A stretch of DNA of 64,000 nt from a bacterium (GTDB lineage Bacteria > Patescibacteriota > Saccharimonadia > CAILAD01 > JADZBC01): assembly GCA_020852295.1 (NCBI GenBank), contig JADZBC010000009.1:7081-71080 (forward strand), given 5' to 3'. The notes under the pieces are model-generated. The model saw only the letters and a program-made list of their open reading frames with translations, searched no databases and was not told where the DNA came from. The translations under genes were made by a program, and so were the position numbers. Shown in pieces: positions 17,281-62,891 of this stretch. Each line of letters begins with the position of its first letter. The first letter of the stretch is position 1.

Positions 17281-17355
17281 GCCCCTGTAGTTCGCGGTAA
17301 GAACACTGGGGAATCCACGCCCCAGAGGTTGGCTGTTCGAATCAGCCCAGGGGCT
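17281..17355 (+). ncRNA. tRNA-like element D. Canonical acceptor, D and T arms, but the anticodon loop is 9 nt (or 8 nt with a 6-bp stem).
   Basis: Acceptor gcccctg/caggggc perfect; D-arm gttc-gcggtaa-gaac; stem ctggg/cccag around loop gaatccacg; T-arm ggctg-ttcgaat-cagcc. Confidence 0.35.
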
Positions 17356-17383
17356 CAAAGGCTCGATCAGCCTCAATGATCAC

Positions 17384-31728: not shown

Positions 31729-31733
31729 TCACT

Positions 31734-32573: not shown

Positions 32574-32613
32574 CCCTATCTAACCCGTGTGAATTATCAA
32601 GGAGAGTGGAGTT

Positions 32614-40906: not shown

Positions 40907-40907
40907 T

Positions 40908-42188
40908 ATGAACCAACAACAAGAACGCAGGAAGCTAATCATTTATACCGTCCTTACAGTCGCTGCGATCCTCGCGATTTACTGGATTATCCAATTTCTT
41001 ACAACTGGTGAACTTAAAGTCACAACAAGCAATAAATCAGCGGAAATAAACATCATTGACCCCGCCACCGGCAAAGTAAGTCAATTTGTGGGCAAAGGCA
41101 GCGGGAGTATCCGCCTCAAGCCTGGTACCTATACAGTTGAGGCAAAACTAGATGACCGGATAACGCGAACTGGATTCGAAATAGTGACATCTAAGACAAC
41201 AAGTAAGAATTTACAGATTACAGACATTAAGTCTCCTAATCAGTTTTTGTACTACTCAGCAAGTCATCTTCATGCTAAAGATAACATACTCTATTTTAGA
41301 AACGATTCTACCAGGGAGTTTAATAAATTCAACTCTTCTGAATCAGAGCCAACCGTAGTCGAGGAGAGTTTACCAGAGATAAGCACAATCCACTGGGCTA
41401 CTGGGGGCAACCTCGCGCTGCTTGAGACATCAGATAATATTTTTTATTACTTCGAGGATGGAAAAATCCGAGTAGTAGATATAAGTGCACCTAATGGCTT
41501 GCTCTATCCGGACAGCAGCAAACCAGACGAAGCCGAAGAAAGTGACGTTAATAGCCAGATTCTACATGCACAGGTGAATGAACTTGGGGCATTTGCCTTC
41601 ATTGAAGAAGGAAAAGTTTTTTACAAACCAAGCCTGGCGGAGAAGGCTAAGCTTGTTACGAATAGGCAGCTACTGAGCGATTCTATACTCGAACTTTCTA
41701 ACAAAGGGTTAATAGCTTTAGTAACATACGAATCACTGGGGCAGGAAAATATCACTTCTAAGGACATCTCAAAGCGAGCAATAGAAATATACAATTCTAA
41801 GAACAACGAAAAAACAACCTTGTCGACAAAGGAAATTCCTGGATTTATGAGTTGGTCACCTGGCGGCGATAAGTTGGTCTATTCAGACGGACAAAACATC
41901 ATGCTTTACAACGATAACGATAAGTCAACCAAAATTGCCTTAGGTAATCGTGGGGAGCTCTCTACATTCATAAGTTGGATCAACGATGATACTATGATTT
42001 TTCCAGACAAAACTAGCCTATGGAAGTACGAGGTTGCTAGCAACACAACAACTAAGATAGCAAATATCCCTGCCGGTATGCTTGTTCAATCTCTCGGTGT
42101 CGATAGCAACGAAAAAACAGTTTTTCTTAGCACTAAGCCAAACTCTCGGTTCGACGCCTTCGGCAATGTCTACCGACTCGATCTCTAG
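40908..42188 (+). CDS. Membrane-anchored beta-propeller-like protein (TolB/WD40-like repeats). It is AT-rich.
   Basis: N-terminal TM (LIIYTVLTVAAILAIYWIIQF) and repeated motifs IHWATGGNLALLETSDN, WSPGGDKLVYSDGQNIMLYN, TFISWINDDTMIF typical of propeller blades. ATG 40908 chosen 1 nt after the upstream stop. Confidence 0.5.
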   Translation: MNQQQERRKLIIYTVLTVAAILAIYWIIQFLTTGELKVTTSNKSAEINIIDPATGKVSQFVGKGSGSIRLKPGTYTVEAKLDDRITRTGFEIVTSKTTSKNLQITDIKSPNQFLYYSASHLHAKDNILYFRNDSTREFNKFNSSESEPTVVEESLPEISTIHWATGGNLALLETSDNIFYYFEDGKIRVVDISAPNGLLYPDSSKPDEAEESDVNSQILHAQVNELGAFAFIEEGKVFYKPSLAEKAKLVTNRQLLSDSILELSNKGLIALVTYESLGQENITSKDISKRAIEIYNSKNNEKTTLSTKEIPGFMSWSPGGDKLVYSDGQNIMLYNDNDKSTKIALGNRGELSTFISWINDDTMIFPDKTSLWKYEVASNTTTKIANIPAGMLVQSLGVDSNEKTVFLSTKPNSRFDAFGNVYRLDL

Positions 42189-48055: not shown

Positions 48056-48501
48056 GTGTTGAAGACATCAAGCTTGAGCTCAAAGAGTTACTCGAAAAAC
48101 TAACGATCGACGATGCGCAGATCACCGAATCAAATCTAGGGGATGCGCTGACGTTCAATATCGATACGGAACACCACGCCATTCTTATTGGACGGCACGG
48201 CGAAAACCTTCGATCACTACAGCACTTACTCAATACGCTCGTGAGGAAGCGCGATAAATTGGCACCATTTGTGGCGGTTGATGTCGCTGATTACAAGAAA
48301 TCACGCCAAGAAAAACTCATGAAGATCGCGCAAGAGGCTGCCAATCGGGCTCGCGATGAACATGCCGAGGTACGACTTAAGCCAATGAATGCGTTTGAGC
48401 GTCGGCAGGTCCACATGGTTTTAGCCGATGAAGCCGATATCGTAACCGAAAGTGTAGGCGAGGAGCCATATCGCACGATCGTAGTGCGCCCACGTGACTG
48501 A
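48052..48501 (+). CDS. Jag/KhpB-family RNA-binding protein (KH and R3H domains).
   Basis: R3H region ...MNAFERRQVHMVLAD..., in the conserved position after yidC. Confidence 0.8.
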   Translation: MSVEDIKLELKELLEKLTIDDAQITESNLGDALTFNIDTEHHAILIGRHGENLRSLQHLLNTLVRKRDKLAPFVAVDVADYKKSRQEKLMKIAQEAANRARDEHAEVRLKPMNAFERRQVHMVLADEADIVTESVGEEPYRTIVVRPRD

Positions 48502-49876
48502 TATGCGAGACAACGACACGATAGTAGCAATCGCCACGCCAGTTGGGGTGGGATCGGTTGGGGTTGTGCGGCTCAGCGGTACTGAATCGCTAACGATAGC
48601 ACAGAAGCTTTGGCGACCGGTCACCAAAGATGAGAAGCGGCATAGTCACCGGGTATCACTTGGCTGGGTGGTGCGGAAAGGCATTAAGATCGATCAGGCT
48701 CTCTTGATCTATATGAAGGGGCCGCATTCCTATACTGGTGAGGACGTCATTGAGATTCAGGCGCATGGCTCGCAGGTTGTCCTTAACCAGATTGTTGATT
48801 TAGCGATTGCTGCCGGTGCGCGATTGGCTGAGCCTGGCGAGTTTACGAAACGGGCCTATCTCAACGGGAAGATTGATCTTGTCCAGGCTGAAGCGGTCGG
48901 GGAACTCATTTCTAGTACGAATCAGAAAATGACCGAGCTTGCATCCCAACAGTTAGCAGGCTCGGTCAGTACGAAAACCGACCAGCTTGCTCAGGAAATT
49001 GCACGCATTGCGGCCCGCGAGTCCGCGAATCTTGATTTTTCGGAGGAAGATCTCGGTGGTACGGATCCCGAGCAACTAAAGCGTGAGCTTAGTGAGATCA
49101 AGCATGATATCCAGAGATTGCTAGAAGGCGAGGATCAGCTGAGCGTTATTCGCGACGGCTTCAAGGTGGCGCTAGTTGGTCTACCAAATGCCGGCAAATC
49201 ATCACTCCTCAACTACTTACTAGGCCACGATCGATCAATTGTTACTTCCCAAGCAGGAACAACCAGAGACACGATCGAGGAGGCCATTACTATTCAAGGC
49301 CTGCTCGTGCGCTTGGTTGATACAGCTGGGCTACGGAGTGGTGCCGGAAAAGTCGAGGCCATAGGAGTTGAGCGCGCTATCAAAGAACTCGAGACGGCTG
49401 GACTTATCCTGCTACTCGTCGAGCCGGGAAAGTTGGCCGCTACCGATAAACTGATGCGTGATATGGGCATGTCGAGCAAAGCCCTTCGCGGTAAGGTTGT
49501 GCTTGTGCATACGAAATCTGACAAGCATCACTCATCCGAGAAATTGCAGAAATCAATCGACGACCTCCCGTCTCTTACGATATCGACAAAAACAGGCGAG
49601 GGCGTAGAGCAACTAAAAGAAACGATCTATAGGCAAGGGGTGCATCAGACGAGTGAAATAGGCACACAGCTAACGACGAAAAGACAGTATGAGGTGTTGC
49701 ACCGCGCCCTAGACGGAGTAGAGGATGCGGCGCAGGCAGCAGAGTCGGCAATGCCAACCGACATCATTGTGGCAGCACTCCAGCAGTCGCTCGATGACCT
49801 ACTGAGCTTGAGCGGCAAACAGGCGAGCGAAGAAACAATCTCGGCAATATTCTCTGGCTTTTGTATTGGTAAGTGA
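48494..49876 (+). CDS. mnmE: tRNA modification GTPase MnmE (TrmE).
   Basis: G1 GLPNAGKSSLLN, G3 DTAGLR, G4 HTKSD, and C-terminal CIGK. Confidence 0.9.
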   Translation: MTDMRDNDTIVAIATPVGVGSVGVVRLSGTESLTIAQKLWRPVTKDEKRHSHRVSLGWVVRKGIKIDQALLIYMKGPHSYTGEDVIEIQAHGSQVVLNQIVDLAIAAGARLAEPGEFTKRAYLNGKIDLVQAEAVGELISSTNQKMTELASQQLAGSVSTKTDQLAQEIARIAARESANLDFSEEDLGGTDPEQLKRELSEIKHDIQRLLEGEDQLSVIRDGFKVALVGLPNAGKSSLLNYLLGHDRSIVTSQAGTTRDTIEEAITIQGLLVRLVDTAGLRSGAGKVEAIGVERAIKELETAGLILLLVEPGKLAATDKLMRDMGMSSKALRGKVVLVHTKSDKHHSSEKLQKSIDDLPSLTISTKTGEGVEQLKETIYRQGVHQTSEIGTQLTTKRQYEVLHRALDGVEDAAQAAESAMPTDIIVAALQQSLDDLLSLSGKQASEETISAIFSGFCIGK

Positions 49877-49882
49877 ATCCGG

Positions 49883-51685
49883 TTATTGGATAGCAGGAAA
49901 ATCGAGTGAGGAGCGGTACCAAGTATTGATAGTGTCGGTTTTTACGACTTTTCCATCGACCACAACATCGCGCCAAAACACAGTCTGCGATGGAATCTTA
50001 GGGTCTAAGTTGCCACTTATAAACTGTGGCCCACGGATGACGCCAGATTTTGTTTTTGTGCCGTAATAGCGAAATGTTAGGGTACTGCCTTTCATCTCCG
50101 TCTGAATAAAGAGGTAGTGACCAGAATCATTCCTAAACTTCATATCAACACCAGGGTAGTTGACTGCAGCATCGACACCAGGCACACCATACGGCTCAGT
50201 ATAGTATTCGACCGCAAATGAGTGGCTGACGCGTTCAAGGATTGGGAAGCCGGCCAGTAGCGCAGCGCGATACGCCGTGGTGCTGACTTGGCACATGCCA
50301 CCACCATATTCATTATTGACCCTGCCTTCGCCGATTACTTTACTCGGCAGATATCCCTGTTCTGGTCCAATTTCACCCATGCGCTCGCCAAAGGAGAATA
50401 CTTCACCTGGCTTCACTACGGTGTTATTGAACTGCGCCGACCCAACACGAATATTGGTGAGTCGAGCAAAGCTAGACCCAGGAAAGGTCGTCGTTGCTTC
50501 AGCAACGAGCTCTTTGATACCAAGACTATCAAGGGTTTCGGTACGAATTTCTGGCTTTGTGGTCTCGACCACGAGCGCAATGCGGCGGTCGGCCGCACTA
50601 TCCTTGAGTGCCGAAAAGATACTATTGGCGCTTGCTTCCACATCGAGTTTTCGTCCGTTTGTACCCTCTTTGGTGACCACTACCTTACCTTCAGCAAGCC
50701 CAAGTGTGGCATTTACTGGGCTACCATCAACTTGTTTGGCGAGACTAGCGACGTAGTCACTAACGGCCTTTTTATCAAATGAGAAATCAGCTGACTTCTC
50801 CCCAAGACGATAGTAGTCATTAAGCAGGCGACTACTTGCCACAGTCGGTGGATTGGACTGAGTTGGCAAGCTAAACCAGCTGAGCAAATTGTCGGTCGTG
50901 ATTTTCCATTCTTGCTGACCATCCACTAAAATGAGTGGGTTTGTAGCAAGATTTTCAAGCTCAGTCTGATGACTGGCGAGCGCCTCTTCGCTAATGGCGG
51001 GCTTTATATTTGCAATCGGCAGGTCGACTGGGCCGTGTGACAGCGTCGATATCGAATTGAGTAGTGCGTAGTTCAGGCCACCCAGATCAAGTCGCTTACC
51101 AACGGCTCCGGGTTCAACCGAAACAATCCCGTTGTCACTACGAAAAAGCGCATTAGTAGTAGGGGAGGATATTTTTTCGATTGGCTCAGATAGTGTCTCG
51201 GCCAACTTCTCTTGGTTGAGACTATAAGTTGCTTCGAGGGGTTGGGTTTGACCGATGAGGAGCCGCAACGTCTCTACGCCCTGAGTTAAGAAGTCTCCAC
51301 TACGGCCGATCGAGAAGAGTCGTTGTATGTCCTGCTCAATATCAAACTTTAGCTCGATTTTAGCCGGCTTGATTCGCCAAACCGCTGAGTTGGTGCTCAG
51401 CAGAATCGGACTTTGACCGTAAGCGGTAGTCTCGGCCTTGAGCTTATCGACCGCTTCAGACTTCGTCATGCCACCAATACTTACGCCATACAGAGAGCTT
51501 CCAGGATAAAAGCGGTCAGCACTGAGTAGTCGTACTGCAAGAAGCAATAAGGCTACCGCGAGTAACGTAGCCATGCTAGCAATGACTACCTTAAAGTACC
51601 AAGGGCGCCGATGGATTGTTGGCAGCACAATTACACCTTCGGTTTTTGGCTTCAAATTATGACTTGACGACTTACTTATTTTCAT
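49883..51685 (-). CDS. VanW-family protein with an N-terminal membrane anchor.
   Basis: VanW signature ...YGGGMCQVSTTAYRAALLAGFPILERVSHSF... plus upstream peptidoglycan-binding-like repeats. Confidence 0.8.
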   Translation of the reverse strand: MKISKSSSHNLKPKTEGVIVLPTIHRRPWYFKVVIASMATLLAVALLLLAVRLLSADRFYPGSSLYGVSIGGMTKSEAVDKLKAETTAYGQSPILLSTNSAVWRIKPAKIELKFDIEQDIQRLFSIGRSGDFLTQGVETLRLLIGQTQPLEATYSLNQEKLAETLSEPIEKISSPTTNALFRSDNGIVSVEPGAVGKRLDLGGLNYALLNSISTLSHGPVDLPIANIKPAISEEALASHQTELENLATNPLILVDGQQEWKITTDNLLSWFSLPTQSNPPTVASSRLLNDYYRLGEKSADFSFDKKAVSDYVASLAKQVDGSPVNATLGLAEGKVVVTKEGTNGRKLDVEASANSIFSALKDSAADRRIALVVETTKPEIRTETLDSLGIKELVAEATTTFPGSSFARLTNIRVGSAQFNNTVVKPGEVFSFGERMGEIGPEQGYLPSKVIGEGRVNNEYGGGMCQVSTTAYRAALLAGFPILERVSHSFAVEYYTEPYGVPGVDAAVNYPGVDMKFRNDSGHYLFIQTEMKGSTLTFRYYGTKTKSGVIRGPQFISGNLDPKIPSQTVFWRDVVVDGKVVKTDTINTWYRSSLDFPAIQ

Positions 51686-51738
51686 GCCTACATTATATAC
51701 AACAGTCGTACAAAACGCGAAAAAGGCTCAACGTGGAC

Positions 51739-52794
51739 TTAGTCTGTCAGTTTTTTGAGTGCTTCCACGCCGTCTTTTACATTTTGGGCGCGATCCTTTG
51801 GGCAGATCAGTATGCCGTTGTCGGTATTGACGACAATGAAGCCCTCCAGGCCTATAGCGACAACCGGCTGCTCTGTCTCCGAGATAATGAGTGTATCTTC
51901 GCAGTCAATCTGCACTGCTTTACCGCGCATGACTACACTATTGTCGTCTCGCAGTATTTCATGAAGGTCGCGGAAGCTACCGATATCAGCCCAGTCAAAA
52001 TTACCCGGCACAACCTGTACGCGATCGAGCTTCTCGATCAGGGCGGTGTCGATCGGTTCATTGGCAAACTCTAGATAGCAACGCTCAGCTTTATTTGATT
52101 CATCAATACAGTCAATGAGTGAGCGGTAGCTCGCATCGAGTTCCTTGTTATGTGCACTGAAGGCCTTTTCGTAGATGGAGATTGGTGCCGCAAATAGGCC
52201 AAGGTTCCACAGGTATTGGTTTGATTTGAGATACTTTCTAGCCGTCACCTCATCCGGTTTTTCTACAAACTTCTCAACTGAAAATACGGGAGTATTGCTG
52301 ATCAAATGGAGCTCCTTGCCCATCTTGATATAACCAAAGCCGGTGGCTGGGTAGTGCGGGGTTAGCCCGATAAGAGTAATGGCCCTACCTTCTTCCGCGG
52401 CTTGTGCAGCAACGGTCGCGGTTTTGCAGAAACTGTCGGCATCAGCGATGTGGTGATCGGCGTGCAGAAAGACGACCGTTTCGTCGGTGGTAATGTGCTG
52501 CTTGATAGTTGCTAGAGCAAGCGCGATGCATGATGCGGTACCGCGTCGAGCTGGCTCGATGATGACGTGGTCATCGGGAATGTGAGGAAGCTGAGCTTTT
52601 ACTTCATCGGCGTGTGAGGCCTCGGTAACGAGGTAGATATCTCTACTCAAGCACTCGGTGCGCTTAATAGTATTTTGCAGGAGTGAATTTTCATCGATCA
52701 GGCGAAGCAGATGTTTGGGGTATTCTGGCTTTGAGATTGGCCAGAGGCGAGTGCCTTGGCCACCACAGATGATCACTACTATCATGTACGGCAT
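51739..52794 (-). CDS. Mannose-1-phosphate guanylyltransferase (NDP-sugar pyrophosphorylase, short form).
   Basis: N-terminal IICGGQGTRLWPIS...P.HLL nucleotide-binding loop typical of ManC/GMPP. There is no C-terminal cupin. Confidence 0.7.
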   Translation of the reverse strand: MPYMIVVIICGGQGTRLWPISKPEYPKHLLRLIDENSLLQNTIKRTECLSRDIYLVTEASHADEVKAQLPHIPDDHVIIEPARRGTASCIALALATIKQHITTDETVVFLHADHHIADADSFCKTATVAAQAAEEGRAITLIGLTPHYPATGFGYIKMGKELHLISNTPVFSVEKFVEKPDEVTARKYLKSNQYLWNLGLFAAPISIYEKAFSAHNKELDASYRSLIDCIDESNKAERCYLEFANEPIDTALIEKLDRVQVVPGNFDWADIGSFRDLHEILRDDNSVVMRGKAVQIDCEDTLIISETEQPVVAIGLEGFIVVNTDNGILICPKDRAQNVKDGVEALKKLTD

Positions 52795-52874
52795 TATAGC
52801 ACTAACCGCAATTTGTCTTGCAATAATAATGAAGCTTTTATGCTATAATGTAGGCCAAGAACGGGGGTGCGCAT

Positions 52875-53408
52875 ATGCCACGAAAAACACAAATCAACAA
52901 AAAAAGAACTCGCATAATCATCATCGGCTCAGTGGTCGTTATTTTGGCCGCACTGAGCTTCCTCGTGTATCGCAAGTATGGCGACACAAAGGTGTCCGTT
53001 TCTCCGTCTCCTGCACCCACCACTCAGACGACCTCATCGCCAGGTAGTGCTTCAGCCCAAGAAAACCCCAAAGATGCTACGCCGACCCCAGTGCCAACTA
53101 CTCAGCCGGGTGGCGGCAAGCAAAGTTTGGTGCCGAACATTAGCAACTACAATGGTGGCGATCCAGTAACGGTCAATGCGGTACTCGGTAAGTCTGGCGC
53201 GGGTACTTGCACCATCACATTTTCTCGCGCCGGGCAGAGTGATGTTGTGCGCAGCGCGCAAGCCGGATTGGTGGTAAACTATTACGGCTGCGGTTTTTCA
53301 GTGCCACGCTCAGCATTTCCGGCTGGTGGCAATTGGAGCTTCAAGGTTAAGTTTGAAAATAGTACATACGCCGGCGAATCGACGCCAATGACGATCGACA
53401 TCAAATAG
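52875..53408 (+). CDS. Membrane-anchored hypothetical secreted protein with a Pro/Thr-rich linker and small beta-rich domain.
   Basis: N-terminal basic stretch plus TM (IIIIGSVVVILAALSFLVY), a PT linker, and a Cys pair in the C-terminal domain. Confidence 0.5.
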   Translation: MPRKTQINKKRTRIIIIGSVVVILAALSFLVYRKYGDTKVSVSPSPAPTTQTTSSPGSASAQENPKDATPTPVPTTQPGGGKQSLVPNISNYNGGDPVTVNAVLGKSGAGTCTITFSRAGQSDVVRSAQAGLVVNYYGCGFSVPRSAFPAGGNWSFKVKFENSTYAGESTPMTIDIK

Positions 53409-53471
53409 GTTTTAGAGGAGGGTGACATAAAACTAGTAAGACACATACCACAAATATTACTCGGCACACTT

Positions 53472-55286
53472 TTGGCAGTGGTGCTTTTTGGTGCCCAGCC
53501 AAGTCACGCGGCCAATGCAGGCGACTTTCAGGCCGGTCGCATCATCGATGATGCTGTATTTACCAATAAGTCAGCTATGTCGGTTAGCGACATCCAGAAC
53601 TTTCTCAATAGTAAGGTGCCGGTATGTGACACCTATCATCCAGCTGGTCCGAGCGCTCAAGGGGCTCAGCCGCCATGGATTTGTCTCAAGAACTACAGCG
53701 AAGGCGGTCGTTCGGCGGCACAAATTATCTATGACGCCGCACAGACATATTCGATCAATCCTCGTGTAATTCTTGTAACGCTCCAAAAAGAAAATGGCCT
53801 CATCACCGATACTTGGCCATACCCGTGGCAGTACCGCACGGCGATGGGATTTGGTTGTCCCGACGGTGCGCCGTGTGATGCGCAGTGGTATGGCTTTACA
53901 AATCAGGTCAATCAGGGCGCTCGACACTTCCGCGGCTTCTTTGACAACAGCCTGAGCTTTGTGCCGTATCGCCCGGGTAATAATTTTATTCAATATAACC
54001 CAAATTCAGGTTGTGGTGGCACTACTCTCAATATCCAAAACAAAGCTACGGCGGCACTTTACAGTTACACTCCGTACCAACCAAATGCCGCTGCACTCAA
54101 TAACCTCTATGGATCTGGCGACGGCTGCAGTGCGTACGGCAATCGCAACTTCTGGCGCGACTACACCGATTGGTTTGGCTCCACCTTACAGCCGAGCTAT
54201 GCCTGGCAATATGTGGGTCAGACGAGCTCAGTAGGCGGCAACTTTGTTGCAACCCAAAAAGCCACCTGGACTTTAACCGCAAAAAACACTGGTACTGCCA
54301 CCTGGACTAATTCTGGAGCAAATCCAATCCGTCTTGGCACAAATAGTCCACGAGATCGCGCAAGCGTCTTTTGTGGGTGTCAACGCGCCGCAACACTCAA
54401 TGAGGCCTCGGTTGCTCCGGGCCAAAATGGGACCTTTACTTTTGAAGTGCAGGCGCCAACTGCAACCGGTAGCTACAAAGAGTACTTTAATCTCGTTGCC
54501 GAAGGAGTTACCTGGCTAAATGACCCAGGCTTATTCTGGGGGGTGACTGTGGTGGCGGCCAACTATTCAGGCACAAAACTGTCAGACTCGTTGCCTTCTT
54601 CTCTCGCAGTAGGCGTAAGTGGTTCGGGGAGCTTAGTAATCCGAAACGACAGCAATGTAGCTTGGTATAACAATGGACGCAATCCGATACTGTTGGGTAC
54701 GAGCAACCCGACCGATCGTTCGAGTGCATTTATCGCTGCAGGGTGGCTAGGCCCTAATAGGCCGACCCGTATGGCGGAAGCAGTCGTAGCTCCAGGTCAA
54801 AACGCCACGTTTAGCTTCGCCCTCAAGGCACCCTCACAGCCAGGTGGCTACAATGAGAACTTTCAGTTACTCGCAGAAGGATACCGATGGTTTGGTCAAA
54901 ATATATCACATCCAATTACAGTAACCGGCCAACAGAACACGCCAGTTGGCACAATGTCCTCCAGTCAAAGTCTAGGTGCGAACCAGGCACTAGTCTCACA
55001 AGACGGGAGATACAGATTGATAATGCAGGGCGACGGAAACTTGGTTCTCTATTCGCCGAGCAGGGCGATTTGGTCAACGCGAACAAGCGGTAAGCCATCA
55101 ACCAGACTAGACATCCAGGGTGATGGGAACCTTGTCCTTTATGGCAACGATGGTCGCTACTACTGGGCATCTTGGACACAGGGTCGTCAGCTTGGCTTTC
55201 TGAATATGCAAAACGACGGCAACCTGGTGCTTTATGACTCTCAGGGACGCCCAATATGGAGTACTGGAACTAGTGGAAGAATTTAG
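53472..55286 (+). CDS. Secreted protein whose C-terminal region carries bulb-type (B-)lectin repeats, downstream of a Cys-rich domain. The true start is probably upstream of the TTG.
   Basis: The three C-terminal repeats LIMQGDGNLVLY / LDIQGDGNLVLY / LNMQNDGNLVLY match the QxDxNxVxY mannose-binding bulb-lectin motif. The frame is open back to 53409, where RBS GAGGAGGG lies at 53415, and the signal peptide reads ...ILLGTLLAVVLFGAQPSHAANA. Confidence 0.7.
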   Translation: MAVVLFGAQPSHAANAGDFQAGRIIDDAVFTNKSAMSVSDIQNFLNSKVPVCDTYHPAGPSAQGAQPPWICLKNYSEGGRSAAQIIYDAAQTYSINPRVILVTLQKENGLITDTWPYPWQYRTAMGFGCPDGAPCDAQWYGFTNQVNQGARHFRGFFDNSLSFVPYRPGNNFIQYNPNSGCGGTTLNIQNKATAALYSYTPYQPNAAALNNLYGSGDGCSAYGNRNFWRDYTDWFGSTLQPSYAWQYVGQTSSVGGNFVATQKATWTLTAKNTGTATWTNSGANPIRLGTNSPRDRASVFCGCQRAATLNEASVAPGQNGTFTFEVQAPTATGSYKEYFNLVAEGVTWLNDPGLFWGVTVVAANYSGTKLSDSLPSSLAVGVSGSGSLVIRNDSNVAWYNNGRNPILLGTSNPTDRSSAFIAAGWLGPNRPTRMAEAVVAPGQNATFSFALKAPSQPGGYNENFQLLAEGYRWFGQNISHPITVTGQQNTPVGTMSSSQSLGANQALVSQDGRYRLIMQGDGNLVLYSPSRAIWSTRTSGKPSTRLDIQGDGNLVLYGNDGRYYWASWTQGRQLGFLNMQNDGNLVLYDSQGRPIWSTGTSGRI

Positions 55287-55334: not shown

Positions 55335-56399
55335 ATGCAAAAAAACAGTAAGATTTACATCGCGGGTCATCGCGGGCTAGTTGGAAGTGCCATATGGCGG
55401 CACCTAGAAGAAAACGGCTATACGAATCTTGTTGGTCGAACTCATGCCGAGCTTGAGTTGACCGATCAGCAGGCTGTTGACGAATTTTTCGAAACAGAAA
55501 AACCGGAGTTTGTTTTTTTGGCGGCGGCTAAGGTTGGCGGTATTAATGCTAACAATATCTACCGGGCGGAGTTCATCTACTCAAACCTTGCCATTCAAGA
55601 CAATATCGTTAGTGCTTCATACAAACATGGTGTCAAGAAGATGGTCTTTCTCGGGAGTGTTTGTATATATCCAAAGCACGCGGCACTGCCAGTTCGTGAG
55701 GACTGTCTGCTCACCGGTGAGCTGGAATATACAAACGAGCCATATGCACTCGCCAAGATTGCTGGCATTAAGCTAACCGAGAGCTACAATCTTCAGTATG
55801 GCACCAATTATGTTTCTGTGATGCCCGCCAACCTATATGGCGAGAATGACAACTTTGACCTTGAAAAATCGCATGTTATCCCGGCGCTAATTCGCAAGAT
55901 GATACTGTGCAAGCACATCGAAAATGCCGATTTTGCCGAGGCGGCCAAAAACCTTGGGCTGACGGACGACGATGAGGCGGCCGTGCTGGCAGAAGTTGCA
56001 AAATATGGTATTGAGAAGCGGAATAACGAGGTGGTGCTCAAGGTCTGGGGGAGCGGCAAGCCATATCGAGAGTTTATGCACTCCGATGACATGGCCGAAG
56101 CTTGTGTGTATATCATGAATAATGTAGATTTTCCAGATCTAGCCGAGGGGCTTAAAGAGGTTCGCAATACACACATCAACCTCGGCACGGGCAAGGATAT
56201 CTCCATTCGGGATTTAGTAGGTCTCATCAAAGACATCGTCGGCACGAGTGCCGTGATCGAGTTTGACACGAGCAAGCCAGACGGCACCTTCCGTCGCTAC
56301 ATGGATGTAGAAAAAGTTCACGAGCTCGGCTGGCATCACAAGATTGAACTCGAAGACGGACTTCGAAAAACCATCGAGTGGTACCAACACAATAGCTAA
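55335..56399 (+). CDS. fcl: GDP-L-fucose synthase (GDP-4-keto-6-deoxy-D-mannose 3,5-epimerase/4-reductase).
   Basis: IYIAGHRGLVGSAI Rossmann fold, catalytic YALAKIAG (Y..K), SHVIPALIRK. It is collinear with E. coli Fcl apart from a roughly 40-aa insertion. Confidence 0.9.
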   Translation: MQKNSKIYIAGHRGLVGSAIWRHLEENGYTNLVGRTHAELELTDQQAVDEFFETEKPEFVFLAAAKVGGINANNIYRAEFIYSNLAIQDNIVSASYKHGVKKMVFLGSVCIYPKHAALPVREDCLLTGELEYTNEPYALAKIAGIKLTESYNLQYGTNYVSVMPANLYGENDNFDLEKSHVIPALIRKMILCKHIENADFAEAAKNLGLTDDDEAAVLAEVAKYGIEKRNNEVVLKVWGSGKPYREFMHSDDMAEACVYIMNNVDFPDLAEGLKEVRNTHINLGTGKDISIRDLVGLIKDIVGTSAVIEFDTSKPDGTFRRYMDVEKVHELGWHHKIELEDGLRKTIEWYQHNS

Positions 56400-56422
56400 C
56401 AGATATAGTATAATTACTACAT

Positions 56423-57250
56423 ATGGAACAGACGATCGTTATCCGTCCCAAGAAACGCTTGTCCATCGACTGGAAAGAGCTCAGAGAATATCGCGAGCTC
56501 TTCTTCTACTTCGCATGGCGAGATGTAAAGGTTCGCTATAAGCAGACAGCTATCGGCATTGTCTGGGCGGTTCTCCAGCCGTTTATCCAAATGGTCGTAT
56601 TCACGCTATTCTTCAATAAAGTCGCCGGCATTCAGGCTGGTACTCGCCAGGTGCCATATGCGATTTTTTCGTTTATAGGATTGCTTTTCTGGAACTATTT
56701 TTCACAAGCCCTCCAGCGCTCAGCCAATAGCCTGGTCGACAACCAGTCGGTAGTCACCAAGGTTTATTTCCCGCGTATTATTCCGCCGATATCTTCGACC
56801 GTTGTCAGTCTTATCGACTTTGCTTTTGCAGCACTTGTTTTTGTGGGGCTTATGTTTTTCTTCCAGTTCCCGCCGACGGCTTTAGGCCTTTTACTAACTG
56901 TCCCAGCGATTCTCGTCACATTTGTCGCAGCATCCGGCATCGGACTGTTTTTGGCGGCAGTCAATGTGAAGTATCGTGATGTAAAACAGGCACTGCCATT
57001 TTTGGTTCAAACTGGTCTATTCTTGACCCCGGTTATTTATCCTGTTGCTTCGATCCCTCAGCAGTATCAGTGGCTTTTATACCTTAATCCTATGACGGGG
57101 GTCATCAACGCAATGCGCTCGAGCTACCTCAATGACAATCCGATCGACTGGGGTCTGACGCTACTTTCCATTGTGGTTTCAGTTCTGTTGTTTGTAGGCG
57201 GCCTGTATTACTTTAAGGGTCGAGAAAAGGAATTTGCGGATATCATATGA
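56423..57250 (+). CDS. ABC-2-type polysaccharide export permease (Wzm/TagG-like).
   Basis: Six TM helices with ABC-2 signature organization. It overlaps the downstream ATPase gene by 4 nt. Confidence 0.85.
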   Translation: MEQTIVIRPKKRLSIDWKELREYRELFFYFAWRDVKVRYKQTAIGIVWAVLQPFIQMVVFTLFFNKVAGIQAGTRQVPYAIFSFIGLLFWNYFSQALQRSANSLVDNQSVVTKVYFPRIIPPISSTVVSLIDFAFAALVFVGLMFFFQFPPTALGLLLTVPAILVTFVAASGIGLFLAAVNVKYRDVKQALPFLVQTGLFLTPVIYPVASIPQQYQWLLYLNPMTGVINAMRSSYLNDNPIDWGLTLLSIVVSVLLFVGGLYYFKGREKEFADII

Positions 57251-58431
57251 GCAACCCAGTAATACAGATTAAGAATCTTTCTAAGGCCTACATGATTGGG
57301 CACGAGCAGCAGGCAGCTGTGGGCACGATGACGTTCCGGGATACGCTTACCAACATTGCCCGCAAACCGATCGAGCTCATCACGGGCCACCAGCTCAAGA
57401 AGGAAAAATTTTGGGCGCTCAAAGACGTTAATCTCGACATCGAAAAAGGTGATGTGGTCGGCATTATTGGCCGCAACGGCTCTGGTAAATCCACCTTACT
57501 GAAAGTCCTGTCGCGAATTGTCGAGCCAACCGAAGGGGAGATTACGATGCACGGTAGAGTGGCTAGCCTGCTAGAGGTTGGGACGGGTTTTCACCCTGAG
57601 CTAACTGGCCGAGAGAATATTTATTTCAATGGCGCTATCCTGGGCATGACTCGCAAAGAGATAAAGGCTAAGTTCGATGAAATCGTGGCGTTTTCAGAGG
57701 TAGAGAAGTTTCTTGATACCCCAGTGAAGTTTTATTCGAGTGGCATGTATGTGCGATTGGCCTTTGCTGTCGCGGCGCACCTAGACCCTGACATTCTGAT
57801 TGTGGATGAGGTGCTGGCGGTTGGCGACGCGGCATTTCAGAAAAAATGTCTCGGCAAGATGAAGGATGTCGCCGGCGAGGGTCGTACGGTGCTTTTTGTG
57901 AGCCACAATATGGCTGCGGTGCAATCGCTGTGCAACAAGGGGGTTGTTATGCAGAGCGGGAAGATGAAGTATACTGGATCGATTGTTGGGGCTATAGAGA
58001 AGTATAATATTCAAGAAGATTTTTCTAGTGCACTTAAGTCAGCTAAGAATCTGGACTCAAAGGCTGCGGTGAAATCTGTGGAGTTTGGGGGGAATATTGC
58101 CCATAAGTACGGGTCGAAGTCAGAGATTTTGGTAAATCTCAATATAAGAAAAATCCAGAAAATTAGGTTGGTGATAAACTTACTGAACTCTAGTGGGCAA
58201 GTCGTATTGAGCTTTGGGAAAATCTTTCAGGTGGAGGATGGGGATAATCGACTCACACTACAGACACCAAGCCTCCGACTTAACGGAGGTAGCTACCGCG
58301 CCAACCTAGTAGTGTTTGATGAGCAGAGGTCGTCCGTGGAGAACTTTCTGGAAGAGATAGGCGTTGTAAGGGTAGAAAAAAGTGTAATTATCCCAAGTGG
58401 ACTAGAGGAAACCATATATCATGAAGTATAA
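57247..58431 (+). CDS. ABC polysaccharide export ATP-binding protein (Wzt/TagH-like) with a C-terminal substrate-recognition extension.
   Basis: Walker A GIIGRNGSGKSTLLK, signature YSSGMYVRLAFA, Walker B ILIVDEVLAVGD, plus about 140 extra C-terminal residues. Confidence 0.85.
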   Translation: MSNPVIQIKNLSKAYMIGHEQQAAVGTMTFRDTLTNIARKPIELITGHQLKKEKFWALKDVNLDIEKGDVVGIIGRNGSGKSTLLKVLSRIVEPTEGEITMHGRVASLLEVGTGFHPELTGRENIYFNGAILGMTRKEIKAKFDEIVAFSEVEKFLDTPVKFYSSGMYVRLAFAVAAHLDPDILIVDEVLAVGDAAFQKKCLGKMKDVAGEGRTVLFVSHNMAAVQSLCNKGVVMQSGKMKYTGSIVGAIEKYNIQEDFSSALKSAKNLDSKAAVKSVEFGGNIAHKYGSKSEILVNLNIRKIQKIRLVINLLNSSGQVVLSFGKIFQVEDGDNRLTLQTPSLRLNGGSYRANLVVFDEQRSSVENFLEEIGVVRVEKSVIIPSGLEETIYHEV

Positions 58432-59146
58432 ATTACTAAACTACATCAGTCACTATAAGGAGGCGATGCACAATCTTGAAAGCATCATAAAAGACAAATC
58501 TAATAGTGTTTTTGTGCACAACGTGGGCGAGCCCCCTAGGCATATCCGTGAAGATTTTATCTTGAATAGTTGCAAAGGAAAATCGGTATTACATTTTGGC
58601 TTTGCAGACGCACCATTCACTAAAAACAGGCTTAAGTCGAATGAGATTTTACATATTCGTATTAAGAAAGTAGCAAAAAGTGTTTTCGGTGCAGATATTA
58701 ATAGTGCTGCGATCGATGAATACAGGAAGGCTACCAAGGATCTTAATAATGCTGAAATAGATATCACAAAGAAGATTGACACTGGATTATTCAAAAATCA
58801 GAAGTTTGACGTAATTCTGCTCGGTGAAATCGTGGAGCATTTAGATAACCCCGTACAAGCACTACAAAACCTAAAGGAAATATCTGCGAAGGTGTGCACC
58901 CGGGGTTCGTATTTATTAATAACCGTACCCAGTGCATTTAGTTTTGATGGTCAAGTCGCGGCGTACCACGGCTATGAGATTGTGCACCCCGACCATTTAT
59001 ACTATTTTTCACCAGTCACCATAAAAACACTCTTAAGGCGCGCTGGCTTCAGGAGCAGTAAAATCTTTCTATATAGAAGTCCTGTAGATAAAAAGAGCCG
59101 TGGAATATCATCTGCGGGCGTGATTGCAAAATCAGAGATTAAATGA
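58421..59146 (+). CDS. Class I SAM-dependent methyltransferase-like protein (FkbM/Methyltransf_23-like).
   Basis: FDVILLGEIVEHLDNP motif block and overall length. It is AT-rich and overlaps both flanking genes. Confidence 0.5.
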   Translation: MKYKLLNYISHYKEAMHNLESIIKDKSNSVFVHNVGEPPRHIREDFILNSCKGKSVLHFGFADAPFTKNRLKSNEILHIRIKKVAKSVFGADINSAAIDEYRKATKDLNNAEIDITKKIDTGLFKNQKFDVILLGEIVEHLDNPVQALQNLKEISAKVCTRGSYLLITVPSAFSFDGQVAAYHGYEIVHPDHLYYFSPVTIKTLLRRAGFRSSKIFLYRSPVDKKSRGISSAGVIAKSEIK

Positions 59147-60309
59147 AGATACTCCATACAGTCGAGTTTTATGCTCCCTCGATTGGAGGTTCTCAAGAAG
59201 TGGTGCGCCAGATTTCTGAAAGGATGGCGGCAATGGGGCATGACGTAACAGTTGCAACCTCTTTCTTGCCAGAAAGAGAATTCAGCACTCTTAACCGGGT
59301 AAAAATAAAGCAGTTTAAAATCTCTGGAAATGAAGTAAGAGGATATAAGGGCGATGTAAAAGAATACCAGGATTTCATTTTGACTTCAAAGTTCGATGTA
59401 GTAATGAACTATGCCGCGCAAGAGTGGACGGCAGACCTTATTTTTCCATTGCTTGACAAAATAAAATGTCGAAAAATATTTGTGCCATGTGGGTATTCAG
59501 CGTTGAGCGATCCACTGTATTCCGAATACTTCAAAAAAATGCCAAATGTATTGCGCCAGTATGATGCCACCATATATCTGGCCAATAAATATCGGGATAT
59601 TGATTTTGCTAGGCAGCACAAAATAAAAAACATTCACATTGTTCCCAATGGAGCCGATGAACGTGAGTTTTTAAATGACTACGATGGAGATATTCGAAGC
59701 GAACTACGCATACCTCAAGAGTCAAAAATGATTATGCACCTAGGAAGCTTTACCGGACTAAAGGGACAGTCGGAGGCTATTGAAATATATAGACGAACTA
59801 AATCAAGCAACACGGTACTTTTGATGGTGGGGAATGTTTTTAATCAAAGTCTTTACCGCAAACTTAGGATGATGGCGACACGATTTAATCTCACCCCAGC
59901 AAATATCCGAAGCAAGAAGAGAATACTCATAAAACAGCTTGATAGGAGGCGCACCGTCGCCTCACTGAAAGCAGCCGATGTATTTCTTTTTCCTTCAAAT
60001 ATCGAGGCCTCTCCACTTGTGTTATTTGAAGCGTGTGCCGCTAAGACACCCTTTTTGACGACTGACGTTGGTAATGCTCAGGAAATCGTGAAATGGACAC
60101 AAGGGGGCCGGGTGCTTCCAACGAGCTTTGACGGCAATGGTTACGCGCACCCAGAGGTACGTGGGTCGGCAAAAATGCTTGATGATTTACTCTCTAATGA
60201 GAGTGAATGCTCAGCGCTTGCGGGCAAAGGCTACTCGGCTTGGAGTAAAAAATTTAGATGGGATAAGATTGCTTCGCAATACCTCACGCTCTACAAGGGT
60301 GGACTATGA
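59143..60309 (+). CDS. GT4-type (GT1-fold) glycosyltransferase.
   Basis: C-terminal E..EASPLVLFEACAAKTPFLTTDVG, an EX7E-like retaining-GT motif. Confidence 0.8.
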   Translation: MKILHTVEFYAPSIGGSQEVVRQISERMAAMGHDVTVATSFLPEREFSTLNRVKIKQFKISGNEVRGYKGDVKEYQDFILTSKFDVVMNYAAQEWTADLIFPLLDKIKCRKIFVPCGYSALSDPLYSEYFKKMPNVLRQYDATIYLANKYRDIDFARQHKIKNIHIVPNGADEREFLNDYDGDIRSELRIPQESKMIMHLGSFTGLKGQSEAIEIYRRTKSSNTVLLMVGNVFNQSLYRKLRMMATRFNLTPANIRSKKRILIKQLDRRRTVASLKAADVFLFPSNIEASPLVLFEACAAKTPFLTTDVGNAQEIVKWTQGGRVLPTSFDGNGYAHPEVRGSAKMLDDLLSNESECSALAGKGYSAWSKKFRWDKIASQYLTLYKGGL

Positions 60310-61142
60310 TTACTATCAAACTACAGGGTGGACTTGGCAATCAAATGTTTCAGTATGCTGCAGCAAGGTCCCTGGCTCTGCGTAATCACACAGTACCAAC
60401 ACTAGACTTATCTTGGTTTGGTCAAGATTTTGACGACTCGACAACTCCACGACACTATGAGCTCTCCTGCTTTGTGTTAGACTCTAGCACTTCAAGATAC
60501 AAAGGAACTGTGCTGGAAAAGCTGCAGCGTCGGTTTGCGATGCAATATAAGGAACCGCATTTTCACTTTGACAAAGCATTCAAAGCCTTGCCAAAAAACA
60601 CTACTCTAGAAGGTTATTTTCAGTCTGAAAAATATTTTAGTGATATACGAGATGAACTACTGAGTGATTTTTCTTGGGTAAAAGAGGCGAAAGGAACAAA
60701 TAGGGAGCTACTAGGGCGTATCAAGAAGGATGAATCGAGCGTATCGGTGCACGTAAGACGCGGCGATTATGTCTCAAACGAGAATGCTGCAAAATTTCAT
60801 GGGCTAACGGGCCTTGAATACTATAATGCTGCCTACCAGAGAATAAAGAAACAAATCAAAAAACCAAGATTATACATATTCTCAGACGAGCCAGATTGGT
60901 GCAAAAAGAGTTTAAAATTCGATGCTCCAACCATCTATGTATCTCACAATAGCGATGGCTCCGAAGATATGCGACTCATGAAGGCGTGTCAGCATAACAT
61001 AATTGCAAACTCTAGTTTTTCTTGGTGGGCTGCATGGCTCAATGAAAACCCTGATAAAATTGTAATAGCACCGAAGCAGTGGTTTAGCCACTCTGAGAGT
61101 AATACTAAAGATATAATCCCACCGTCATGGCACAAACTATAA
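60306..61142 (+). CDS. GT11-family alpha-1,2-fucosyltransferase.
   Basis: GGLGNQMFQYA, HVRRGDY, and SSFSWWAAWL, the three hallmark GT11 motifs. Confidence 0.85.
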   Translation: MITIKLQGGLGNQMFQYAAARSLALRNHTVPTLDLSWFGQDFDDSTTPRHYELSCFVLDSSTSRYKGTVLEKLQRRFAMQYKEPHFHFDKAFKALPKNTTLEGYFQSEKYFSDIRDELLSDFSWVKEAKGTNRELLGRIKKDESSVSVHVRRGDYVSNENAAKFHGLTGLEYYNAAYQRIKKQIKKPRLYIFSDEPDWCKKSLKFDAPTIYVSHNSDGSEDMRLMKACQHNIIANSSFSWWAAWLNENPDKIVIAPKQWFSHSESNTKDIIPPSWHKL

Positions 61143-62050
61143 AAAAGAAGTCAAAGAAGGGATCCGGTACGCCCCTTGTTTCTGTTGTAATGAGCGTTTA
61201 CAACGGTGAAAAATATTTGAGGGAAGCGATTGATTCCATACTCAATCAAACGTTTATGGATTTTGAGTTTGTCATAATAGACGATGGTTCGACAGATAAT
61301 ACGTTAGAGATCCTAAAGAGCTATAGTGATCCACGTATTCTACTCATTAGCAGGGAAAATAAAGGACTTGTAGCCTCCTTAAACGAAGGGATCGAGATGG
61401 CGCGAGGCAAATATATCGCACGCATGGACGCGGATGATATAAGTCACAAGAAGAGATTAGAATACCAACTGCAAATGATCGAATCCAGTTTCGTGCCAAC
61501 GGTCGTAGCTACTCTTGGACTACTAATCGACGACCAAGGCACAAAAAGAGGCACCTATCTCGTGCCCTATTTGCAGCCAGACTTGGCACGGAGATTTTAT
61601 ATCGGTAATTCTATATTGCATGGATCGGCCATGTATCCAAGGGATGCCGTTCTTCAAAATGGACTGTATTCTGATAGTGTCGGGCCGGTTGAGGATTACG
61701 ATCTTTGGACTAGACTTGATTTACTATCTTTTTCTGTGGTGCCCAAGATGCTTTATTCGTATAGAGTAAATGAGGAAGGTGTCTCTATCCAAAGAAGTAC
61801 CCAACAGTTAAGAGGCGCTAAAATAGTAAGAGATGAGCTTTGGCGCAATAACAACCTTCCGGGGTTACGGCTGTTTGGGCTATGGTCGCGCATAAAAACA
61901 TATAAAACCGTCAATGCACAGATTGTATTCGACCTTTTGAGTGATCAAAAAATGCTCATAAAACAGGCCCTAAAGAGAAACCGGTTCTTCCTGGCCTTTA
62001 AGAATCTCCTCAATTACTTAACCGTAAAGCTATTGAATAAGTTAATATAA
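61127..62050 (+). CDS. GT2-family glycosyltransferase.
   Basis: VSVVMSVYNGEKYL, IIDDGSTDNT, and DADD (DxD). Confidence 0.85.
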   Translation: MAQTIKKKSKKGSGTPLVSVVMSVYNGEKYLREAIDSILNQTFMDFEFVIIDDGSTDNTLEILKSYSDPRILLISRENKGLVASLNEGIEMARGKYIARMDADDISHKKRLEYQLQMIESSFVPTVVATLGLLIDDQGTKRGTYLVPYLQPDLARRFYIGNSILHGSAMYPRDAVLQNGLYSDSVGPVEDYDLWTRLDLLSFSVVPKMLYSYRVNEEGVSIQRSTQQLRGAKIVRDELWRNNNLPGLRLFGLWSRIKTYKTVNAQIVFDLLSDQKMLIKQALKRNRFFLAFKNLLNYLTVKLLNKLI

Positions 62051-62054
62051 GAAG

Positions 62055-62891
62055 ATGAAGAAGAATCGTGAAAAGATAACAGTGTTAATTAACACACTTA
62101 ACGAACAGGACAATATTGTGGACTGCATCAGGTCGGTCGAGTGGGCTGATGAGATACTGGTGGTGGATATGCACTCAGATGATGATACCGTAAAACTAGC
62201 ACAAAAGTTTGGGGCAAAAGTCTTAAACTTTGAAAGGGTGGGCTATGTGGAACCCGCAAGAAACTTTGGCATTGAAAAAGCGCTTAATGACTGGATTTTT
62301 GTAGTGGACGCCGATGAAAGAATTCCAGGTCAATTGGCTCAAAAAGTACGAGATTTAGTTGATGGTAATGAGTATGATGTTTGTTGGGTTCCCGAAAAGA
62401 ATATGGTATTTGGTGAATGGATTCAACATGGGCTATTGTGGCCAGACTATCACCCCCGGTTGTTTAGAAAAGGGTTTATCCAGTGGTCAAGCAATGTACA
62501 TGACATCCCAAAACCAATCGGTAGAGAAACATATCTCGCCGCGGAGCAAGATTTAGCTATTGAGCATTTGTCAAAATCATATGCAACGGTTTCGGGATTT
62601 GTTGATAGTTACAATAGGTATAGCACATTCGAGGCTGATACCCTCAAGCGGCAAGGATATAAATTTCGAAGCAGGCACTATATACTTGTTCCCGTCAGGG
62701 AGTTTCGCAGCAGGTTCTTTAAGCACAAGGGCTACAGGGATGGGCACCACGGCCTAAGACTGGCCCTTCTCTTTGCATTCTATAAATTTCTGGTAATTGC
62801 GAAATATGTGGAGAAATATAATCCCACAATTAATAACGATAAAGGGCTTAAGAAGTGGCAATATCTATATAGACTGCTTCGTGATCGTTAA
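62055..62891 (+). CDS. GT2-family glycosyltransferase.
   Basis: ITVLINTLNEQDNI, LVVDMHSDDDT, and VVDADE (DxD). Confidence 0.8.
   Translation: MKKNREKITVLINTLNEQDNIVDCIRSVEWADEILVVDMHSDDDTVKLAQKFGAKVLNFERVGYVEPARNFGIEKALNDWIFVVDADERIPGQLAQKVRDLVDGNEYDVCWVPEKNMVFGEWIQHGLLWPDYHPRLFRKGFIQWSSNVHDIPKPIGRETYLAAEQDLAIEHLSKSYATVSGFVDSYNRYSTFEADTLKRQGYKFRSRHYILVPVREFRSRFFKHKGYRDGHHGLRLALLFAFYKFLVIAKYVEKYNPTINNDKGLKKWQYLYRLLRDR

Follow-up and report, generated by a model that had tools for sequence, protein, structure and literature searches.

A lysozyme-like protein with a bulb-type lectin in a Saccharimonadia glycan-synthesis cluster: a candidate cell-wall glycosidase addressed to the producer's own surface

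Introduction

Attachment to host bacteria is the way of life of Saccharibacteria and other Patescibacteria, whose surface biology is hardly known. A gene of a Saccharimonadia bacterium raises the question of what a secreted lectin might do in the midst of genes for glycan synthesis. It lies in a stretch of 64,000 nucleotides of contig JADZBC010000009.1 (assembly GCA_020852295.1, positions 7,081 to 71,080, forward strand), here called the window, in which an open reading frame (ORF) at 53472–55286 (+) encodes 604 amino acids (aa) when counted from a TTG codon. An initial annotation had described the product as a secreted protein with a Cys-rich N-terminal domain and a mannose-type bulb lectin at its end, which might bind either the cell's own mannose or fucose glycan or the mannans of a host or partner, and whose translational start was unclear. 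The ORF and its length are borne out. The protein is identical to the NCBI entry P0001, annotated as "hypothetical protein", its named relatives belong to Candidatus Saccharimonadia/Saccharibacteria, and the 64-kb window holds no paralogue of the gene.

The locus asks what kind of protein this is, where its translation begins and whose glycan the lectin addresses. We favour the answer, with a probability of about one half, that it is a modular glycosidase of the cell wall, secreted by the Sec route, and that its lectin directs it to the mannose-type glycan of the cell that makes it.

Domain architecture of the putative hydrolase-lectin protein

The protein appears to be a modular enzyme with a lysozyme-like glycosidase domain as its core and is not primarily a lectin. 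Residues of the full protein are numbered here from an ATA codon at 53427, from which the proposed full coding sequence (53427–55286, +) would give 619 aa plus stop.

At the C-terminus (aa 509–619; 54951–55283, +), the identity of the bulb-type lectin is confirmed beyond chance. The Pfam profile B_lectin (PF01453) matches at 40.8 bits against a gathering cutoff of 32.4, and a phmmer search of the sequences in the Protein Data Bank (PDB) returns 34 bulb-type lectins, with putidacin L1 as the best match (E 2.5e-22) and further matches to SCAfet (1e-20), pyocin L1 (~3e-19), the Mycobacterium smegmatis lectin 4OIT (6e-19) and gastrodianin (8e-19). Solved members of the family, many GNA-type plant lectins among them, match at E 1e-13 to 1e-22, and the alignments span about residues 509–617, that is the whole domain of ~110 aa; from this full-length alignment a beta-prism II fold is very likely. 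The three subdomains announced by the initial annotation are complete and carry intact mannose-type motifs, QGDGNLVLY at aa 534–542 (55026–55052, +) and again at aa 564–572 (55116–55142, +), and QNDGNLVLY at aa 595–603 (55209–55235, +). All three QxDxNxVxY motifs are kept in 28 single-lectin homologues, at fixed distances of −85, −55 and −25 from the C-terminus. The rarity that had been ascribed to bulb lectins in bacteria does not extend to this protein family, in which 42 of the best 120 homologues carry them (28 with one domain, about 12 with two and 2 with three). Between the lectin and the N-terminal domain lie two NBR1-type Ig-like domains that had gone unmentioned (aa ~258–374 and ~375–503; 54198–54935, +; PF16158 at 63.1 bits in two stretches, cutoff 28).

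The N-terminal domain (aa 29–257; 53511–54197, +) holds the key to the protein. An AlphaFold2 (AF2) model of it has a pLDDT of 92.5 and a pTM of 0.90, and structure comparison, at the level of a weak match, places it among the lysozyme-like folds closest to GH73. The top Foldseek structures are the P68 lysin, MltF, the Clostridium perfringens autolysin, Staphylococcus aureus Atl and PlyCA; S. aureus 6U0O is also among the matches, and many lytic transglycosylases, g-type lysozymes and GH19/GH23 chitinases stand lower. The domain has no match in NCBIfam, in PHROGs or, by phmmer, in the PDB. In an alignment of 64 family sequences K93 and E94 of a QKE motif (E94 being E122 of the full protein), G113, C116 and Q132 are invariant, as are T180, Y184, Y186, T187 and P188 of the YSYTPY motif, and a YGNRNFW motif is nearly so. 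From this pattern of conservation the domain is read as a catalytically competent glycosidase with E122 as the general acid, a residue that would correspond to the catalytic Glu of GH73. Six cysteines are conserved as well; with 6 Cys in ~230 aa, the description of the domain as Cys-rich was overstated.

The family to which this domain belongs is large. An exhaustive HMMER scan of 1.84 billion representatives found 4,162 clusters at 50% identity with E ≤ 1e-3, and 2,112 with E ≤ 1e-30. In most of the matches listed the domain sits near the N-terminus of proteins of ~320–1100 aa, and in a few, including the top three, it sits further in. Free-living Actinobacteria have it too, at 46–52% identity in Cellulomonas (L014 and L015) and Microbacterium (L016 and L018), and L016, one of the latter, joins it to nine LGFP wall-binding repeats, among neighbours that encode sugar epimerase/dehydratase (sugar-nucleotide) enzymes and glycosyltransferases of family 2 (GT2). 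The presence of the domain in free-living Actinobacteria may point to gene exchange between Saccharibacteria and their host phylum. Some 4,000 clusters at 50% identity would carry a lysozyme-like wall hydrolase domain for which Pfam has no model, which Actinobacteria share and which is near-constant in wall-glycan clusters.

A predicted non-canonical start codon and signal peptide

The start region is as the initial annotation described it. The frame is open back to a TAG at 53406–53408, a strong Shine-Dalgarno sequence (GAGGAGGG, 53415–53422, +; GGAGG core at 53417–53421) stands 5 nt before ATA 53427, and no ATG, GTG or TTG occurs in frame before TTG 53472. That TTG had been the fallback start, a role that it loses on comparison, since it reads TTA even in the 94%-identical locus L029. 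The sequence GGAGGGTG, by comparison, is invariant in the window and in the related loci L029, L001 and L003, and is followed by two bases, by ATA (window, L029) or ATC (L003, L001) and then by a Lys codon. No canonical start exists at the aligned position in the window, in L029 or in the 71%-identical L003; in L001 an ATG overlaps the Shine-Dalgarno sequence itself, and the more distant relatives L010, L023 and L024 have ATG at the aligned codon.

The peptides encoded from the two candidate starts differ. The product from ATA 53427 begins with MKLVRHIPQILLGTLLAVVLFGAQPSHA and continues with ANA, and its first 28 residues (53427–53510, +) are predicted, by manual feature analysis and hydropathy, to form a Sec-type signal peptide with an n-region containing K2 and R5, an h-region of 17 residues (I7–A23), a c-region QPSHA and cleavage after A28 at an S-x-A site (S-H-A before A). 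Equivalents exist in all full-length homologues, and the more distant ones all start with a signal peptide of 25–35 residues (MKxxxK..., hydrophobic core, A-x-A) before a conserved GRIIDD. The peptide from TTG 53472, MAVVLFGAQPSHA, has no charged n-region and a core of 7 residues. The secretion claimed for the protein would therefore follow only if translation begins upstream of the TTG; an N-terminus extended to ATA 53427 has the normal n-h-c layout. The start puzzle thus resolves to a predicted non-canonical start at ATA 53427, which would restore a normal Sec signal peptide.

Other accounts of the start region were rejected. TTG 53472 or GTG 53478, the start of the NCBI model P0001, founders on the TTA in L029 and the missing n-region. 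Read-through of the stop codon from the upstream partner gene would require a common frame. The window, L029 and L003 have TAG 53406–53408 in the frame of the lectin ORF, but in L001 an offset of 22 nt sets the two ORFs in different frames, which excludes this possibility. A pseudogene after loss of the start was likewise rejected: the ORF is intact in four lineages, and against L029 dN/dS is 0.053 at dS 0.65 over codons 1–250, which indicates that the gene is not decaying.

Initiation at AUA, AUC and AUU reaches 1–2% of that at AUG in Escherichia coli (bioRxiv 10.1101/063800), and a conserved AUH codon behind a strong Shine-Dalgarno sequence would plausibly keep the level of a lytic enzyme low. 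The same codon has a consequence for databases. The public models P0001 (NCBI), P0003 (Logan) and P0109 (ENA) are N-terminally truncated and, together with the first canonical start of the window, make up gene calls for four orthologues that start inside the signal peptide (window 53472/53478, L003:4806 and L029:5031); these genes have no upstream ATG, so that the ATA/ATC start would be missed by gene callers and the signal peptide lost. Secretome predictions for such genomes miss the hydrolase-lectin protein and can be systematically wrong, and other ATH-initiated genes may be mis-called likewise.

The glycan-synthesis locus and its conservation

That the gene is embedded in a glycan-synthesis cluster is upheld both by its neighbours and by conserved synteny. 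Downstream a cassette of genes on the same strand (55335–62891, +; Pfam and NCBIfam) opens with an fcl-like gene for a GDP-fucose synthase (55335–56399, +; NCBIfam 425 bits, below the equivalog cutoff of 500) and continues with wzm (56423–57250, +), wzt (57247–58431, +), a methyltransferase gene (58421–59146, +), a GT4 gene (59143–60309, +), a gene of the GT11 fucosyltransferase family (60306–61142, +) and two GT2 genes (61127–62050 and 62055–62891, both +). The junctions between these genes are short or overlapping, and nothing resembling a terminator separates the lectin gene from fcl; a promoter and terminator scan of the locus gave matches at chance level only. ABC-transporter-dependent, methyl-capped polymannose is known from the O8/O9a O-antigens of E. 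coli. The product of the cassette, judged by its genes, is probably a mannose-containing, fucose-decorated and methyl-terminated wall glycan. The Fcl-like synthase carries an insertion of ~45 aa around aa 195–240.

Placement of the gene between manC and fcl is right on the fcl side and wrong on the manC side, where the immediate neighbour is an ORF of 177 aa (52875–53408, +). Beyond it lie manC (51739–52794, −), divergent from the hydrolase-lectin gene, and a gene for a VanW/PG_binding_4 protein (49883–51685, −; Pfam/NCBIfam), and this left flank (49883–52794, −) is also found in L001, L003, L024 and L029. The 177-aa protein, here called the partner, has a transmembrane (TM) helix near its N-terminus (aa ~10–30), continues through a disordered linker of Pro, Ser and Thr and ends in an FN3/Ig-like sandwich (aa 75–177). 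Its homologues share the helix, the Pro/Ser/Thr-rich linker and a domain of ~100 aa with the pattern GTCT...C...G.W; an AF2 prediction from database homologues assigns the same sandwich fold to this domain at a pLDDT above 90, and its structural neighbours are generic only.

Among relatives with 38–71% identity, the family member stood inside a glycan-synthesis cluster in all nine contexts first examined, whether lectin-bearing (P0002, P0003, P0007, P0026, P0046 and P0093) or not (P0055, P0056 and P0107), and a partner ORF of ~175–190 aa was directly upstream of the hydrolase in eight of the nine. A wider set comprised 80 metagenomic and 18 genome loci. Where 6 kb of flank or more is available (64 loci), Wzm/Wzt are encoded inside it in 46, and an ORF resembling the partner stands immediately before the hydrolase gene in at least 47 of 89 loci, a lower bound given the fast evolution of the partner. 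Of 14 lectin-bearing loci, 7 have an Fcl orthologue directly after the hydrolase gene; no locus without a lectin has one there, and in two such loci Fcl lies 5–9 kb away.

Exchange of C-terminal modules together with the cassette

Across the family the C-terminal modules (C-modules) are interchangeable and include B_lectin, DUF5648, a propeller-like repeat, extra NBR1-Ig domains and modules with no Pfam match; P0080 lacks Ig domains and has two lectin domains right behind the hydrolase domain. The clearest case of exchange comes from the comparison with L029. By blastn, 48448–54178 of the window forms one unbroken block of 5.7 kb at 93.8% identity, covering trmE, vanW, manC, the partner (97% aa identity) and the hydrolase domain (95%). 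Position 54178 (+), the last base of this block, marks the recombination junction, at the DWFG end of the hydrolase domain and before the next residue, S. The remaining 10.4 kb after 54178 has no DNA similarity to L029, and protein identity in a sliding window falls from 85–100% to chance level after aa ~250. The L029 protein (P0109, L029:5031–6743) runs from the hydrolase domain into six repeats of ~55 aa (LHVFYYDVTNGNLRHAW) and has no Ig and lectin domains, and its cassette encodes a UDP-GlcNAc 2-epimerase, a Wzx-type flippase, methyltransferases, GT4 and GT2 without the fcl/wzm/wzt/GT11 set. The repeats, which have no Pfam or PDB sequence match, probably form a beta-propeller. The same type of repeat module recurs in L057, L069, L070 and L080, and may be a new carbohydrate-binding module.

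The reverse mosaic is seen in L024, where the hydrolase domain is 33% identical and the partner unrecognisable by BLAST, with 64–67% identity in the Ig and lectin part, 80% in Fcl and 75% in Wzm, and the same GT4 and GT11 downstream. In the locus of P0055, the hydrolase (7849–9777) ends in NBR1-Ig and DUF5648, and an adjacent S8 protease (9786–12251) shares this module, within a cluster that holds rmlBCDA and wzm/wzt. Two different enzymes of one locus with one C-module look like bearers of an address label. The P0055 locus also suggests DUF5648 as a wall-glycan anchor, perhaps of the rhamnose type.

Proposed function and alternatives

The following sequence of events is proposed. Translation from the weak AUA at 53427 behind the strong Shine-Dalgarno sequence would keep a potentially lytic enzyme scarce, and the 28-aa signal peptide would be removed during export. 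The lysozyme-like domain would most likely cut the glycan strand of peptidoglycan, with the Glu of QKE as the catalytic acid. The two NBR1-type Ig domains would act as spacers, and the bulb lectin with its three intact mannose-type sites would be the address label that holds the enzyme on the mannose/6-deoxyhexose wall glycan of the same cell, a glycan made and exported by the adjacent ManC-Fcl-Wzm/Wzt-methyltransferase-GT4-GT11 cassette. The membrane-anchored FN3-like partner probably positions or restrains the enzyme. Two tandem FemAB-family genes elsewhere in the window (6896–8898, −) suggest a peptidoglycan with interpeptide bridges, which bears on the form of the hydrolase's substrate.

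The self-wall, self-glycan reading is favoured because the gene holds a fixed place among the producer's own glycan genes, behind a membrane-anchored partner, because actinobacterial homologues carry LGFP anchors for their own wall, and because changes of module type accompany changes of cassette type. That the catalytic domain stays 95% identical while the whole cassette is exchanged argues for an invariant substrate, either peptidoglycan or a conserved linkage, rather than the variable polymer. The idea of an own-glycan ligand in the initial annotation thus gains comparative support from conserved synteny and cassette swapping, with fine-scale co-inheritance weak.

A number of observations pull in the other direction. 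The structural match of the N-terminal domain is remote (Foldseek E > 0.01, TM-score ~0.35–0.39), aa 29–257 have no Pfam match even at E ≤ 1 and lie outside the PF01832/GH73 profile, and a search of PDB sequences with a profile built from 64 homologues retrieves no GH73 chain at E ≤ 10. The assignments of start codon and signal peptide are computational. No gene for a GDP-mannose 4,6-dehydratase was found in the 64-kb window, which makes the nucleotide-sugar product uncertain and fucose synthesis from the locus alone incomplete, the composition proposed for the glycan comes from gene content alone, and half of the lectin-bearing loci have other cassettes. When seven lectin/Fcl loci are compared in pairs, C-module identity is only weakly correlated with the identity of Fcl, Wzm and Wzt (r 0.14–0.30), and no better than with that of the catalytic domain (r 0.30–0.35). 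The C-module lies between the conserved catalytic domain and the cassette, so that one crossover could transfer both without a functional link; the conserved N-terminal domain could merely serve as a recombination arm, and the co-transfer could reflect physical linkage.

In the same seven loci, covariation is tight between Ig and lectin domains (r 0.94) and between Fcl and Wzm (r 0.76), and the pattern of correlations as a whole presents the locus as a mosaic of three blocks, namely the partner with the catalytic domain, the Ig domains with the lectin, and the cassette. Co-evolution of C-module and cassette at the level of alleles was rejected in view of the weak correlations, and co-inheritance holds only at the level of module type and cassette type.

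The most serious rival turns the same protein outwards, as a lysin or adhesin whose lectin would bind the mannans of an actinobacterial host (lipomannan/lipoarabinomannan or mannosylated wall glycans) while the lysozyme-like domain opened the host wall for attachment or nutrient release, the C-modules tracking host range. The relatives belong to the Saccharimonadia, and those of this class in culture are obligate epibionts of Actinobacteria, and binding of TM7x to its host is halved by soluble mannose and nearly abolished by rhamnose (PMC11623550), which shows that the phylum has a means of recognising host glycans. Lectin-like bacteriocins head the lectin matches, phage tail-tip lysins that attack from outside are among the best fold matches, C-modules are swapped between near-identical strains as expected of a surface in an arms race, and the occurrence of the N-terminal domain at 46–52% identity in Cellulomonas and Microbacterium is compatible with gene exchange between host and epibiont. 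A host-directed role would, however, leave unexplained the fixed position in the producer's glycan cluster behind a membrane-anchored partner, free-living Actinobacteria keep the domain on LGFP self-wall anchors in sugar-gene neighbourhoods, module type and the producer's own type of cassette change in step, and a weak AUA start would be odd for a weapon; on balance this role is unlikely, though it deserves to be taken seriously.

A hydrolase for the operon's own product is a common component of polysaccharide operons, and constant residence in glycan clusters would equally suit a glycosidase of the BcsZ, AlgL or PslG kind that trims or releases the glycan of the cassette, with the lectin binding that substrate; chitinases and chitosanases also fall within the lysozyme-superfamily folds. 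Such an enzyme should vary with its polymer, whereas the catalytic domain is 95% identical between an ABC-type fcl/GT11 cassette and a Wzx-type UDP-GlcNAc 2-epimerase cassette and is highly conserved across rml-, man- and fuc-type clusters, and the top fold matches are peptidoglycan enzymes. Constancy of the catalytic domain while the polymer genes are exchanged disfavours trimming of the BcsZ/AlgL type, which we consider improbable. Least credible, and by a wide measure, is a surface lectin or adhesin that only binds by way of a degenerate N-terminal domain, or a gene in decay after loss of its ATG. The absent canonical start codon and the lack of a sequence-level match to characterised glycosidase families would fit this account, but 64 diverse sequences keep Glu, Tyr, Thr and Asn residues without exception, the gene has a dN/dS of 0.053 when set against a relative at dS 0.65, four lineages with ATA or ATC starts all retain the 1.86-kb ORF intact, and both the Shine-Dalgarno sequence and the signal peptide are conserved.

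The self-wall reading can be generalised, tentatively and at less than even odds, to the proposal that these wall-glycan loci are serotype cassettes with a matching address label, the C-module being swapped in frame, along with the genes for glycan synthesis, by recombination at the hinge of the hydrolase and expression being throttled by AUA/AUC. The wall enzymes of each strain would then always recognise its own surface glycan. If the self-wall reading is right, the catalytic domain would represent a new family of peptidoglycan hydrolases, and bulb lectins would be newly used as self-wall anchors in ultrasmall epibiotic bacteria. If the modules do bind the glycan of their own cell, surface glycan types could be predicted from sequence, and the lectin domains could serve as labels for uncultured cells.

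Three elements of the system appear to be undescribed: the large, uncurated and cluster-resident catalytic family, the bulb lectin in the role of one exchangeable address module among several, and the conserved AUA/AUC start that costs public models their signal peptide. A literature search found no paper on any of them, nor any that brings together Saccharibacteria and NBR1-Ig domains, or bulb lectins and peptidoglycan hydrolases.

Other features of the window

The window lies around dnaA, dnaN, recF, yidC and trmE. Apart from the locus discussed above, a block of large genes at 27430–42188 includes proteins of 1432 aa and 437 aa with no Pfam match, a VirB4/TraG-like ATPase (33531–35426), a protein of 1161 aa with an M74-like murein endopeptidase segment and an M23 peptidase of 680 aa, and resembles a Patescibacteria type IV secretion-like locus with wall hydrolases of its own. 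ARAGORN called three tRNAs (16850–16926, 17091–17173 and 17281–17356: Gly-ACC, Thr-GGT with the anticodon at position 30, and one with a 4-base 'tcca' anticodon) that the Rfam tRNA model does not report at its gathering threshold, although it confirms five neighbouring tRNAs; the three are either false positives or unusual tRNAs.

Comparison with known systems

The lectin finds its closest counterparts in the lectin-like bacteriocins putidacin L1/LlpA and pyocin L1/L2, whose B_lectin domains have the same QxDxNxVxY sites as the C-terminus of the window protein. The lectin of pyocin L1/LlpA targets a surface polymer of 6-deoxy-mannose (D-rhamnose). These bacteriocins have tandem lectins, lack an enzymatic domain and a signal peptide and kill via BamA, whereas the window protein has a single lectin domain on a hydrolase with Ig spacers, and with 95 bits against a cutoff of 275 it falls outside the NCBIfam model NF033557 (LLB_putidacin). 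A precedent for a bulb lectin joined to a wall-directed module is MSL of M. smegmatis (4OIT, a PDB entry titled 'LysM domain protein'). This actinobacterial mannose lectin of the beta-prism II fold matches the C-terminus described here, and in its full-length form the lectin is combined with a peptidoglycan-binding LysM domain; MSL has no catalytic domain and no known glycan-cluster context.

With regard to the enzymatic part, phage tail-associated lysins such as gp10 of Staphylococcus phage Andhra and Orf11 of P68 differ in their setting, as the window locus is chromosomal, near dnaA/yidC/trmE, with no phage context, and its N-terminal domain matches no PHROG. In the SagB-SpdC complex of S. 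aureus (6U0O) a GH73-type glucosaminidase has a membrane protein as its partner, and the hydrolase described here is likewise encoded beside one, but SpdC is polytopic and of the CAAX type, whereas the window partner is single-pass and FN3-like and its interaction putative. The GH73 autolysins themselves, among them LytB of Streptococcus pneumoniae, Atl/AtlE/SagB of S. aureus and Acp of C. perfringens, anchor by choline-binding, GW or SH3b repeats; the window protein, which lacks similarity to the PF01832/GH73 profile, would anchor by a bulb lectin, its gene resides in a glycan-synthesis cluster, unlike theirs, and the order of LytB is reversed in it, with the catalytic domain first. Gram-positive autolysins are held on wall polymers by choline-binding, SLH or CWB2 modules. 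As an enzyme that would work in the manner of these modular autolysins (LytB, Atl, AcmA and the CWB2/SLH enzymes), the protein overturns no current idea and would extend their known logic to a lectin-borne address.

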